Positions 24,753-29,111 of a DNA stretch of 64,000 bases are shown one piece after another. The position numbers and the translations under genes are program-made. The notes under the pieces were generated by a model. It was not told the origin of the DNA. It did not search any database and worked only from the letters and a program-made list of their open reading frames with translations. The stretch lies in the NCBI RefSeq assembly GCF_050920415.1, contig NZ_CP169309.1; one strand, written 5' to 3'. Positions within the stretch are counted from its first letter, which is position 1. Every line of letters starts with the position of its first letter. The stretch comes from Escherichia coli (GTDB taxonomy: Bacteria; Pseudomonadota; Gammaproteobacteria; Enterobacterales; Enterobacteriaceae).

Positions 24753-25445
24753 TTATCCACGAGGCGCAAAAGCGGCGGCGGCTTCCTGCGCCCTTTTCAG
24801 GCACTCCTTACACACCGATTTTTCTGGTGCTTCCTCATCCTCATCGTTGTTATCATTCTGATCGGACGACGCATTACTGTCATTTTGCTCAGCCGCTAAA
24901 CTTTTATCATCTGCCAGCGCTTTCAAAACCGCCGGTTGTAGCGTCGGCACCGGCGTTCCCGGACTACCGCCGCTATTGAGATTGATTTTCGGCCCGACGA
25001 TGTCCACGCCCCCTGAATGGATGACCACAAACGAACCACCCACCTTCAGGGTGATTTTACCGCCACTCTCCAGTACGATTTCATCCCGGACCTTCATTCC
25101 CAGCGCACCGGTAATCTTCCTCGCCAGGTCGCCCTTCACCTCCAGACTGTGCTTTCCCTCCACCAGACTGATATGGTTCCCCGTCGTCTTATGCTCCTGC
25201 TTCCCTTCCACCGTCACTTTACGGTCGTTTCTGACATACAGGCCGTCATCGTGACTCACGCTCACCGTCCGGTCATTCGTCACCTTCAGCGTCTGGTCAT
25301 TACGTACCGTTATGCGCCGGTCGTTCGCCACCGTGATACTCTGGTCGTGGCCCCCTTCTTTTCTGGTGCCGACCTCAACCGTCTGCCCCTTCACCACCCT
25401 TATCTTCTGGTCGTTACCGATGGTCTCCGTATGGTCATGCTTCAC
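24753..25445 (-). pseudogene. vgrG: vgrG C-terminal fragment (beta-helix repeats and acidic tail), separated from the N-terminal part by an IS
   Basis: Repeats ...ITVANDRRITVRNDQTLKVTNDRTVSVSHDDGLYVRNDRKVTV...; in frame with the N-terminal fragment once the IS and one CACG copy are removed. Confidence 0.8.
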
Positions 25446-25547
25446 GTGTCAGCGCCAATGATATAAGACAGTAATTCACCATTTGGATTGTCCGCTCCAC
25501 CCAACATGTTGTTTCCTTAAGGTTCCTACACCACAAAGGGAACACTC

Positions 25548-26719
25548 ATGCTGAGCAGAGAGGACTTTTACATGATAAAGCAAATGCGCCAGCAAGGTGC
25601 GTATATTGTTGATATTGCCACTCAGGTTGGTTGCTCTGAGCGGACTGTCAGACGGTACCTGAAATACCCGGAACCTCCGGCCAGAAAAACACGCCACAAA
25701 ATGGCCAAACTCAAGCCGTTCATGGACTATATCGACATGCGTCTGGCTGAGAATGTCTGGAACGGCGAGGTCATCCTGGCGGAAATCAAAGCGATGGGTT
25801 ATACCGGTGGCCGTTCCATGTTGCGTTACTACATCCAGCCCAAACGTAAGATGCGGCCATCGAAGAAAACGGTTCGCTTCGAAACTCAGCCCGGTTACCA
25901 GCTACAGCATGACTGGGGAGAAGTTGAGGCTGAGGTTGCCGGGCAACGATGCAGGGTTAACTTCGCGGTTAATACGCTGGGGTTCTCACGTCGCTTCCAT
26001 GTCTTCGCGGCACCAAAGCAGGATGCTGAACATACCTATGAGTCACTGGTCCGCGCCTTTCGCTACTTCGGCGGCAGCGTGAAAACCGTGCTGGTCGATA
26101 ACCAGAAAGCCGCAGTGCTGAAAAATAACAACGGGAAGGTGGTGTTCAACTCCGGGTTCCTGCTGCTGGCCAATCACTATGGCTTCCTGCCACGGGCCTG
26201 CCGTCCACGAAGGGCCAGAACCAAAGGTAAGGTGGAACGGATGGTGAAATACCTCAAGGAAAACTTCTTCGTCCGGTACCGCCGGTTCGACAGCTTCGCC
26301 CATGTTAATCAGCTACTGGAGCAGTGGATGGCTGACGTTGCCGACAGGCGGGAACTTCGCCAGTTCAGGCAGACACCGGAACAGCGCTTCACGCAGGAAC
26401 AGGTGCATCTGCAGGCGCTGCCAGGTACGGACTTCGATACCAGCTACTTCGATATCCGTCATGTCTCCTGGGATGGCTATATCGAGGTTGGCGGGAACCG
26501 TTACAGCGTGCCGGAAAGCCTGTGTGGCCAGCCGGTATCAATACGGATCTCGCTGGATGATGAACTGCGATTTACAGTAATGAGCAACAGGTAGCATCGC
26601 ACCGTCTCTGTTCGGCTGTATACGGCTGGCAGACCGTGCCGGAGCATCACGCCCCACTCTGGCAGCAGGTCAGTCAGGTGGAACACAGGCCGTTGAGTGC
26701 CTATGAGGAGCTGTTGTGA
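25548..26719 (+). pseudogene. istA: IS21-family transposase IstA, frameshifted near the C-terminus
   Basis: MLSREDFYMIKQMRQQG... HTH plus DDE domains; ORF stops at 26594 while the conserved C-terminus (...WQTVPEHHAPLWQQVSQVEHRPLSAYEELL) continues in another frame to the TGATG overlap with istB. Confidence 0.8.
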
Positions 26720-27512
26720 TGCATGAACTGGAGACACTGCTGGGTCGTCTTAAAATGGAACATCTGGGCTACCACGTTGAAAGCCTGCTGGAGCAGGCGG
26801 CCAAAAAAGAACTGAACTACCGCGAGTTCCTGTGCATGGCGTTGCAGCAGGAATGGAACGGGAGGCATCAGCGCAGTATGGAGTCCCGGCTGAAACAGGC
26901 CCGCTTCCCGTGGGTCAAAACGCTGGAGCAGTTCGACTTCGGCTTCCAGCCAGGTATCGATCGTAAGGTCGTCCGTGAGCTGGCCGGGCTGGCGTTCGTG
27001 GAGCGTAGCGAGAACGTGATCCTGCTGGGTCCGCCTGGTGTGGGTAAAACGCACCTGGCAGTCGCTCTCGGGGTAAAAGCGGCGGACGCTGGTCATCGGG
27101 TGCTGTTCATGCCACTGGATAAGCTGATCGCCACACTCATGAAGGCAAAACAGGAAAACCGGCTGGAAAAACAGCTACAGCAGCTTGGTTATGCCCGGGT
27201 ACTGATACTGGATGAGATAGGCTATCTGCCGATGACCCGCGAGGAAGCCAGTCTGTTCTTCCGGTTGCTGAACCGTCGATATGAAAAAGCGAGCATCGTG
27301 CTGACGTCAAATAAAGGGTTCGCCGACTGGGGAGAGATGTTCGGCGATAACGTGCTGGCAACGGCAATCCTGGATGACTGCTACACCACTCAACCACACT
27401 GAACATCAAAGGAGAAAGCTACCGGTTAAAGGAAAAACGCAAAGCGGGAGTGCTGGCAAAAAACGCCACGCCAATCAGTGATGATGAAATGGCGGCAAGC
27501 GGACAACATTAA
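26716..27512 (+). pseudogene. istB: IS21-family helper ATPase IstB, frameshifted near the C-terminus
   Basis: Walker A GPPGVGKTH; ORF ends at 27402 but [44 protein letters not shown] continues in another frame to 27512. Confidence 0.8.
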
Positions 27513-29111
27513 TGACCAATAGCGGACATTAAAAATGGCGAAAAACGGCCAATAATCTTGGCGTTGACACACGTCCGTCGTCCGGTCGTTAAGCACCTCC
27601 GTGTCCATGTTCTTCTGCGCGTGGATATACACCTGCTCACTGTCCGTCGCATCCTCGAAACGCAGTTCATTAAAGCCGCTTCCTTTATAGGTCTTCGAGC
27701 GGATGGTCATCTGCGTCCGCGTGCCCGGTAAATCCCCCGGTGAACGGTTGTCTTCATGGTAGGTCCGCCCCGTCACAATGGGCTGGTCCGGGTCGCCGTT
27801 CAGAAAGTCCACTATCACTTCCTGACCCACACGCGGTATCGCCAGATTGCCGAACCCCGGTCCCGCCCATGCCTGCGACACCCGTATCCAGCATGAACTC
27901 TCCTCCGTCATCCCGTGATAACGGTCCCAGTGAAACTTCACCCGTACCCGGCCATGTTCGTCGCAGAATATCTCCTCGCCCTTCGGCCCGGTCACGATGG
28001 CACTCTGCGGGCCGTCCACCTTCGGCTTCGGCAGCGGCGCGTGACGCCACGTCCTGTCCGCCGGTATCACCTCAAACTGATTGCTCAGCGTCGTTCCCTC
28101 GCCGTGACTCCCGTGCAGCGCCTGCGGCTGTTCTCCCCGCAGTGTGCTTCCCACAACCTGCCATTCCCGGTTCAGCGTCCCTGAGGGATGGCCCGTCAGC
28201 CGGAACCGCGTTCCCGGCCACAGTCGCGCCGTGTTACACACCCCGCTCGCCGTCTCCGCCCCGTTCCGCCACCCTTCCGTCTGGTAACGCGCAAAGTCCT
28301 GGCCGTGCTGCTCATCCTTGAAACGCCCCGGATAATCAAATATCTCGTACTGCGTTCCCTGCCCGTTCAGGCTCTCCCCGGCATGGCTGTAGTACCCCGG
28401 CCACCCCGGCGTTTTGAACATATAATCCTGCGTCTCCACCGACGCCACGCTTATCTGCGCACGGTAACGAAACTCGCTGATGTACTCCGTCGTTCCCCCG
28501 GTCGTCGTGTCCGGGTTAAACGCCAGCGCCCCCATTCCCGTCAGCCCCGCCACGTCATCACACACCGCCAGCTTCTGTTCCGGCCCTTCCTGACTGCAGC
28601 GCTCATAAAAGAAGATACCTTCCTCCGCCCACAGCCGGGTCAGGAACGCCAGGTCGCTCTCCCCGTACTGCACGCAGAACTCCCGCGCCGGGTGCGCCTC
28701 ATAGAACAGCGGCATCCACGCCGTCACCCCGTTCTCTTCAAGAAGCTGTGCTGATATCGTCTGAATGTCCTGCTGCTGGAAGATACGGAAGTTCTGCCGT
28801 AACCCTGCCCGCCACAGCGGCGGGCTGATGCTCAGGGAATAACGCATCTGCCAGTCGTTGTTCTCACCGAGCTGCACCTCCGTCACGATACCGCTGACGT
28901 AACGCTGTGCAGTGTCGCCCTGCCAGACCGTCAGCAGCGCGCTTTTCTCCAGAAAATCCTCCGCCGTCAGGTCAGACAGTCCGCTGGCGATATCCACATC
29001 CAGGATGAACGGTGTGCAGTGGTGCTGGTACAGACGGAAGCTCACCACTGCCGTCGCCATCTCCACAATACCGTCCACCGACAGCGTGAAACGTAATCCT
29101 TCTGAGGACAT
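27426..29111 (-). pseudogene. vgrG: vgrG N-terminal fragment (gp27/gp5-like), truncated by IS insertion at 27569/27570; ORF reads through into IS sequence
   Basis: VgrG-like N-terminus MSSEGLRFTLSVDG...; authentic sequence ends ...NDRTTDV at the IS junction. Confidence 0.85.

Follow-up and report, generated by a model that had tools for sequence, protein, structure and literature searches.

An ISEc62-split vgrG in an Escherichia coli T6SS cluster, with a probable later deletion between tandem vgrG copies

Structure of the locus

The window, by which we mean the whole 64-kb stretch of Escherichia coli DNA that we analyzed, carries a T6SS-1 cluster in which the spike gene vgrG lies in two pieces on either side of an insertion sequence (IS). 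The features that concern us are listed below by their position in the window.

19943-22042, minus strand: tle1, phospholipase effector gene, open ORF
22027-22584, 22569-23123, and 23108-23662, minus strand: three tli1a (DUF3304) immunity genes, open ORFs
23976-24740, minus strand: tla1 (DUF4123 adaptor gene), open ORF; with tle1 and tli1a it forms the cargo module of the split vgrG (19943..24740)
24753..25442, minus strand: vgrG C-terminal fragment, codons 515-743 plus stop; remaining beta-helix and cargo-specific tail
25443..25446, no strand: left copy of the target site duplication CACG, present once in the intact allele
25447..27569, plus strand: ISEc62 (IS21 family), 2123 bp; intact copies elsewhere are 2125 bp
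25548-26719 and 26719-27512, within ISEc62: istA (DDE transposase) and istB (AAA+ helper ATPase), in this order and with a one-base overlap
27570..27573, no strand: right copy of the target site duplication CACG, present once in the intact allele
27570..29111, minus strand: N-terminal part of vgrG (codons 1-514), coding for the gp27-like hub, the OB fold, and ~46 residues at the start of the gp5 beta-helix
28752..28762, minus strand: putative crossover interval from the marker table, gene nucleotides (nt) 350-360, inside the N-terminal fragment
29328..29846, minus strand: hcp, immediately upstream of the split vgrG; related strains have an intact vgrG-A in the next position
30497..50136, plus strand: rest of the T6SS-1 cluster (tssB, C, E, F, G, tagH, tssJ, K, L, tssH/clpV, vasI, tssA, tssM, a VasL-domain gene, and a second hcp)

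Reading-frame analysis placed 514 VgrG residues between 29111 and 27570 (reading downward), the last of them being NDRTTDV, and placed the C-terminal frame from 25445 down to 24753, starting V/M-KHDHTETIGNDQK. The insertion falls after vgrG codon 514, within the gp5-type beta-helix, and the N-terminal frame continues for 47 codons inside the element to give an ORF of 561 amino acids (27426..29111). When we excised the element (25447-27569) and one CACG in silico, the remaining sequence gave an open frame of 743 amino acids (744 codons including the stop) with no internal stops. The initial annotation had proposed that an IS21-family element bisects vgrG with a 4-bp duplication (CACG at 25443-25446 and 27570-27573), that the N-terminal frame ends at the right IS end and the C-terminal frame restarts at the left, and that excision would restore one continuous frame, and all of this was confirmed. 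On the intact allele described below, Pfam assigns Phage_GPD to 33-328, Phage_base_V to 385-451, and Gp5_trimer_C to 468-542 and 546-622, and the cut site lies inside Gp5_trimer_C. The hub, OB fold, and beta-helix are all present in the restored and intact alleles and in no single ORF of the window (the split follows residue 514).

The element begins with TGTCAGCGCCAA from 25447 and ends with TTGGCGTTGACA up to 27569, and its terminal inverted repeat is matched at 11 of 12 positions, with TG...CA ends. It is 99.8% identical at the nucleotide level, over its full length, to an annotated ISEc62 on plasmid AP025742.1 and 98.2-98.3% identical to many other ISEc62 copies; the name rests on a RefSeq-named copy rather than on the ISfinder reference entry. 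Members of the IS21 family make target duplications of 4-8 bp, and we found 4-bp duplications at two further ISEc62 copies (GCTG and CGAC). The window copy resembles ISEc62 on other enterobacterial plasmids and chromosomes in its istA-istB order, one-base overlap, TG...CA ends, and 4-bp duplication, but differs from them in being 2 bp shorter and in having apparent frameshifts in istA and istB. Our literature search on ISEc62 returned plasmid papers only, and a consensus scan of the IS end facing the C-terminal fragment revealed no outward promoter there.

Both IS frames are interrupted in the window by apparent 1-bp deletions, at 26568 in istA and at 27375 in istB. An intact element at the same site in L008 encodes products of 390 amino acids (PF00665, rve) and 264 amino acids (PF01695, IstB_IS21), and strain 10290 carries a copy that does not differ from the intact plasmid ISEc62. 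All four window-specific differences in the IS fall on GATC sites, affecting three of the seven GATC sites of the element, and outside the IS several window-specific indels coincide with a homopolymer or with CCWGG or GATC motifs. We conclude that the istA and istB frameshifts are probably consensus errors of the assembly in repeats and not biology. We had considered that the frameshifts might mark an old, decayed IS, and we dropped this idea because the changes are all on GATC sites and the other window-specific indels are found only in multi-copy DNA. Those in the rRNA operon affect the 23S rRNA gene and the neighbouring spacer or 16S gene.

We assigned the cargo module from orthologue annotation in N96 and MFDS1022581 (RefSeq names in N96) and from Pfam on the 100% nucleotide-identical genes of L006, the sequence that holds the intact allele. 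A DUF4123 adaptor, DUF3304 immunity proteins, and a Tle1 catalytic domain, whose activity is predicted, are all encoded downstream of their cognate vgrG. The split vgrG is linked to hcp, its immediate upstream neighbour, and to the T6SS core genes from tssB to tssM, which are transcribed divergently. All ORFs at 30497..50136 are open, and the region is colinear with, and 99.9% identical to, the annotated cluster of MFDS1022581. A tblastn search across the 64-kb window found no further vgrG, PAAR, Tae4, or M35 gene. The cluster retains every core gene bar an intact vgrG, and it contains no PAAR gene. Two points of the initial annotation are thus borne out: the window contains no other vgrG, and the remaining T6SS core genes are open.

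The intact allele and other carriers of the insertion

A different E. coli strain carries the gene uninterrupted (LFZI01000019.1; L006 10001-12232, product P0131 / WP_052953558.1), and there the empty target is a single CGTG. This intact allele matches the restored gene at 2229 of 2232 nucleotides (99.9%), which shows that the split frame pair is not a chance arrangement and that the two halves belong to one gene, as the initial annotation had assumed. The C-terminal fragment is 100% identical to it, as is the whole 5,500 nt from that fragment through tle1 in the same strain. The intact allele is the third vgrG in a three-vgrG array after hcp.

The identical insertion is present in at least three other genomes: MFDS1022581 (NZ_CP169399.1), Escherichia sp. 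10290 (AP025741.1), and STEC_7v (AEXD01000005.1). The same junctions were found in three independent assemblies, and one carrier is a draft assembly with a low accession number (GCA_000194575.2). These genomes share with the window the insertion site, orientation, and duplication, flanks of 99.7-99.9% identity, and the downstream genes tla1, tli1a, and tle1. Every other carrier has two intact vgrGs beside the split gene, which occupies third place in a tandem series of three vgrG modules. Unlike the window, these carriers retain, from hcp to the split gene, vgrG-A, vgrG-B, two PAAR genes, and the M35, Tae4, and M23 modules. The window and MFDS1022581 are nearly clonal (2 mismatches in 16 kb; 99.9% identity over 24 kb), and yet 11,407 bp that are present in MFDS1022581 between homologous vgrG positions are missing from the window.

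The initial annotation had called the insertion recent. This holds insofar as there has been no decay since, given the 5,500 nt that are unchanged from the intact-allele strain, and does not hold insofar as several strains have inherited it.

Marker pattern and deletion between vgrG copies

We compared the N-terminal fragment with a marker table built from four vgrG-A and four third-vgrG copies and found that it is recombinant. The signal of the hcp-proximal vgrG-A consists of the upstream region and, within the gene, a single 3-nt marker at nt 348-350; from nt 360 onward the markers are those of the third vgrG. A marker switch at nt 350-360 points to a later 10-11 kb deletion between two nearly identical vgrG 5' parts. 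Our preferred reading, to which we give a probability of about 0.85, is that the single-vgrG layout of the window arose by insertion of ISEc62 into the third vgrG (vgrG-C) and then a deletion of 10-11 kb, so that the spike and effector end of the cluster decayed in two steps. The view that this was a single-step inactivation of the only vgrG, put forward from the window sequence, has to be given up, since the insertion is common to the other carriers and sits there in the third of three vgrGs, and since the one-vgrG layout requires the deletion as a second event.

In the first step, a single ISEc62 copy jumped into the last of the three vgrG modules that stand in tandem, and duplicated CACG. 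The order of the modules after hcp is a vgrG-A/M35 module, a PAAR/vgrG-B/Tae4 module, PAAR and an M23 peptidase gene, and vgrG-C with tla1, three tli1a genes, and tle1, and the disrupted vgrG-C allele has been passed down in a small lineage. In the second step, which the marker patterns suggest for the window strain, homologous recombination between vgrG-A and the disrupted vgrG-C would have taken place over their ~99%-identical first 1.5 kb. This event would have placed the IS-split gene behind the hcp-proximal promoter, with ~350 nt of vgrG-A as its new 5' end. Lost with the intervening DNA would be two vgrGs that were still intact, both PAAR genes, and the associated effectors, leaving the broken gene as the sole vgrG of the cluster.

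An assembly artefact, in which the IS was misplaced or the tandem vgrG array collapsed so that the real genome resembles MFDS1022581, would gain some weight from the confinement of 1-bp indels to multi-copy DNA (the IS, the group II intron ltrA, and the rRNA operon) and from the sequence contexts of several of them, which are typical of unpolished long-read consensus. We nevertheless regard it as unlikely, as the IS junctions recur in independent assemblies, long-read assemblers seldom lose ~8.5 kb of unique sequence flanked by 1.5-kb repeats, and the join is a clean in-frame crossover. A different history, in which the cluster always had one vgrG and a recent single IS insertion struck it, has in its favor that a layout of hcp, one 743-aa vgrG, and tla1 is common in E. 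coli (for example, NC101) and that the window matches exactly this layout plus the IS. However, alleles of the single-vgrG strains are just ~88.6-88.9% identical at the nucleotide level, the 99.9% intact allele and all other insertion carriers place the gene third in an array, and the switch from vgrG-A to third-gene markers would be left unexplained, all of which makes this history quite improbable. That the IS joined two different vgrGs into a chimera, by IS-IS recombination or an IS-mediated deletion, is hardly credible: against the N96 and MFDS1022581 copies the N-terminal half resembles vgrG-A (99-100%) and the C-terminal half vgrG-C, with the identity switch at nt 1522-1554, no more than 32 nt from the IS, whose site is nt 1542, but an origin of the halves from different vgrGs is ruled out by the intact allele, an uninterrupted gene with the same N- and C-terminal types, and by a continuous orphan paralog that is 99.6% identical over 800 nt spanning the IS site, and nt ~1554 is the point where vgrG C-terminal types diverge, as they do between vgrG-B and the N96 vgrG-C without any IS.

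Insertion followed by deletion, as we prefer to read the locus, is ordinary gene decay and essentially a known kind of event. It makes a tidy case of how recombination between tandem, near-identical vgrG 5' regions can strip a cluster of entire spike-effector modules; in this instance an IS had put one module out of action beforehand. It opens no new question. The deletion is observed in one assembly only, which has uncorrected errors in repeats.

Spike supply and comparison with other systems

Since the 561-aa product has lost the cargo-binding tail and the greater part of the beta-helix, we would not expect it to form a functional spike. Any firing of the T6SS would then rely on orphan VgrGs encoded elsewhere, as the initial annotation had suggested. 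A vgrG elsewhere in the genome is likely, and one candidate is an intact orphan VgrG of 801 amino acids (XVM71453.1), expected at the ybbP locus, which is apparently encoded in the same genome, a placement made via its accession prefix and a largest contig of the same size (5,311,592 bp) as for XVM71746.1 and not via sequence. Delivery of Tle1 would probably be lost, and the cluster retains its module, which would be undeliverable, together with the immunity genes. We predict that the window strain is unable to deliver Tle1 and depends on orphan VgrGs.

A selected state, in which the strain disarms but stays immune, is a very doubtful account of the insertion and deletion, even when it is widened to include the option that the truncated 561-aa VgrG, now hcp-proximal, might be a dominant-negative hub that tunes firing. 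If it were true, the spike modules and the delivery of four effectors would be gone with tli1a immunity kept, and the firing machine would stay intact and reloadable by orphan VgrGs.

The exact 561-aa product is on public record (WP_432780843.1 / XVM71746.1), where it has no gene position assigned, and automated pipelines label this fusion product as an intact TssI/VgrG (WP_000093543.1, WP_432780843.1). In-silico T6SS typing would therefore count the cluster as complete.

The cargo module resembles that of the enteroaggregative E. coli Sci-1 VgrG-Tle1 system (6SJL, 6SK0, 6SKI) in that a Tle1-family phospholipase gene stands beside vgrG with immunity genes nearby. However, the solved Sci-1 VgrG (841 aa) is only distantly similar to the window VgrG (E 9e-22, N-terminal part only), and in the window a DUF4123/Tla1 adaptor gene stands between vgrG and the effector gene. 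The C-terminal domain of the Sci-1 VgrG binds Tle1 directly.

Insertion sequences are known to have inactivated T6SS genes in genomes of the Aeromonas salmonicida, Aliivibrio salmonicida, and Acinetobacter baumannii type. Our literature search for genome papers that combine vgrG, insertion sequence, T6SS, and disrupted led to these same three species. The window differs from these cases in its IS and its host, and in that a recombinational deletion among tandem vgrG paralogs appears to have come next.

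Anatomy of the split vgrG

Inactivation of T6SS genes by insertion sequences is well known, and the initial annotation correctly recognized an IS21-family insertion in vgrG here. The element is 99.8% identical over its full length to the ISEc62 copy (IS21 family) annotated on plasmid AP025742.1, and 98.2-98.3% identical to many further ISEc62 copies on enterobacterial plasmids. The positions first given for the element, the CACG copies and both vgrG frames proved exact.

Features of the split vgrG (window coordinates)
25447-27569: mobile element, 2123 bp, ends TGTCAGCGCCAA and TTGGCGTTGACA
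25443-25446 and 27570-27573: CACG target duplication, identical on both sides of the element
From 29111, minus strand: N-terminal vgrG ORF, 514 VgrG residues, the last being NDRTTDV
25445-24753, minus strand: C-terminal vgrG ORF, first residues V/M-KHDHTETIGNDQK

The N-terminal ORF reads on for 47 codons within the element, for a total of 561 aa. When the element and one CACG were removed in silico, the two frames joined in a single open frame of 743 aa, as had been expected.

A protein search with the restored VgrG returned a cluster holding intact 743-aa VgrGs, among which P0131/WP_052953558.1 differs from it by one residue. The gene for this protein, on L006 (LFZI01000019.1), matches the restored gene at all but 3 of 2232 nt, and its target carries one CGTG. 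The window and this intact-allele strain also agree at 100% over the 5,500 nt that cover the C-terminal fragment, tla1, three tli1a genes and tle1. Both halves therefore belong to one gene, and none of the outcomes named beforehand as refuting (a lost frame, unequal repeats, halves of separate genes) occurred. Compared with the vgrG copies of strain N96 and MFDS1022581, the N-terminal half resembles vgrG-A, the hcp-proximal vgrG, and the C-terminal half the Tle1-linked vgrG, the apparent switch falling at nt 1522-1554, an interval that includes the IS site (nt 1542). A chimera of two vgrGs is nevertheless ruled out by the intact allele and by an orphan paralog that runs through the IS site at 99.6% identity. 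The vgrG paralogs are mosaics, and their C-terminal types begin to part near nt 1554.

Related genomes have orphan vgrG islands at yibF and at ybbP (L005, 6522-13057; L010, 10001-12406); their vgrGs match the cluster vgrG at 99.6% in central segments and have different C-termini. L005 also carries a further ISEc62 copy, inside an HlyD-family gene, with target duplication CGAC.

The insertion in other genomes

Other strains carry the insertion too: identical vgrG::ISEc62 junctions are present in E. coli MFDS1022581 (the only carrier among 5426 complete E. coli genomes), Escherichia sp. 10290 and STEC_7v. The same allele is already in annotated public records, its 561-aa fusion labelled intact TssI. 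These three genomes and the intact-allele strain share an array of vgrG modules.

Array order, counted from hcp
Position 1: vgrG-A (770 aa) and M35-type module
Position 2: PAAR, vgrG-B (820 aa) and Tae4 module
Position 3: PAAR and M23 peptidase
Position 4: vgrG hit by ISEc62 in carriers, with tla1, tli1a and tle1

The insertion is inherited, and its target was one of three vgrGs.

Two side observations concern these modules. In related strains, about 23 first codons of the M23 peptidase gene 3' of PAAR (30952-31033 in the MFDS1022581 locus) are 91% identical to the vgrG start (window 29043-29111), which looks like a scar of older recombination among vgrG modules. In N96, the Tle1-linked vgrG (29290-31524 in its locus) lacks the IS, yet its annotation is that of a pseudogene, owing to an internal stop; the first 1 kb, at the N-terminal end, is vgrG-B-like and only 65-80% identical to the window's. 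The Tle1-linked module has been re-assorted there.

Probable loss of DNA upstream of the split gene

The window and MFDS1022581 are nearly clonal (at least 99.9% identity on both flanks), but the window lacks the 11,407 bp that part the homologous vgrG-A and split-gene positions in that genome; the same spacing is 10,069 bp in a strain without IS2. The join is revealed by markers whose states are the same in each of four vgrG-A copies and in each of four third-gene copies. The window is of vgrG-A type at nt 348-350 and in the region 5' of the start codon, and of third-gene type at nt 360, 363, 408-420, 692 and 1362. The two 5' parts are ~99% identical; homologous recombination between them, crossing over at nt 350-360 (window 28752-28762), would yield such a deletion, and recombinational deletion is the simplest reading of the missing DNA and the marker switch.

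The vgrG history very probably comprises two steps, not one, the second of which left the split gene as the sole vgrG of the cluster. The initial annotation had proposed a single-step inactivation of the only vgrG; it is the only one now, although it would once have stood in an array of three, later reduced by deletion. A tblastn search of the 64-kb window turned up no second vgrG and no gene for PAAR, Tae4 or M35. All remaining T6SS core genes (tssA to tssM, hcp) are open and colinear with annotated relatives.

Predicted consequences for spike and cargo

The IS cuts within the Gp5_trimer_C beta-helix (Pfam: 468-542 and 546-622). The 561-aa product keeps the hub and OB fold and should neither form a working spike nor carry Tle1, since it lacks the cargo-specific tail and the greater part of the needle. 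This exact product (XVM71746.1) is listed on a 5,311,592-bp contig, and the largest contig listed for an intact 801-aa VgrG (XVM71453.1) is likewise 5,311,592 bp. In other genomes the 801-aa VgrG gene lies at the ybbP locus, and relatives have pairs of orphan vgrGs at yibF, so orphan spikes may still allow the machine to fire.

The window's tle1 is intact (19943-22042, 699 aa). Near its 5' end, MFDS1022581 has G6 (20568-22619 in its locus) versus G7 in the window (21996), L006, N96 and L008, a locus with intact ISEc62 at the same site. Because G7 is common to these four, the shortened tle1 annotation in MFDS1022581 is the deviant.

Apparent frameshifts in multi-copy DNA

Intact ISEc62 copies measure 2125 bp. 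The window copy has four differences (26172 G>A, 26568 delG, 26572 C>T and 27375 delC), which break istA and istB; all fall on GATC motifs, affecting three of the element's seven GATC sites. The MFDS1022581 copy has its own 2-bp deletion in istA, and that of Escherichia sp. 10290 is identical to intact plasmid ISEc62.

Compared with near-clonal relatives, the window also lacks a C at a CCAGG site (18572) in ltrA, the group II intron gene, splitting it into two ORFs (17988-18605 and 18548-19504), and differs by a 1-bp indel at each of seven sites of the rRNA operon (within 60286-63895). Six of the seven fall inside the 23S rRNA gene, and the one at 63895 is past its end, in either the spacer or the 16S gene. 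By context, one coincides with a CCAGG site, one with a GATC site and one with a G run; the remaining four are in none of these contexts. Across 16 kb of unique DNA, a near-clonal relative shows two substitutions and zero indels, and the window-specific 1-bp indels are confined to multi-copy DNA (ltrA, ISEc62, the 23S rRNA gene and the spacer/16S site). These differences look like errors left in an unpolished long-read consensus, at methylated motifs of sequences present in several copies. We rejected decay of the IS as the cause of the istA and istB frameshifts, given the GATC placement of the changes and the confinement of indels to multi-copy DNA; these frameshifts are probably artefacts.

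Surroundings of the T6SS island

The left end of the window (1-7210) holds apparently open Flag-2 lateral flagellar cluster genes, homologues of fliM/N-like, fliP, fliQ, fliR, flhB and flhA, followed by a hicAB toxin-antitoxin pair (~7300-7950, placed by colinearity with MFDS1022581). The stretch between yafV and tle1 (15700-19600) contains remnants of ISAs1, the group II intron with ltrA and a gene for an 'integrating conjugative element protein'; this left border of the island is a mobile-element graveyard.
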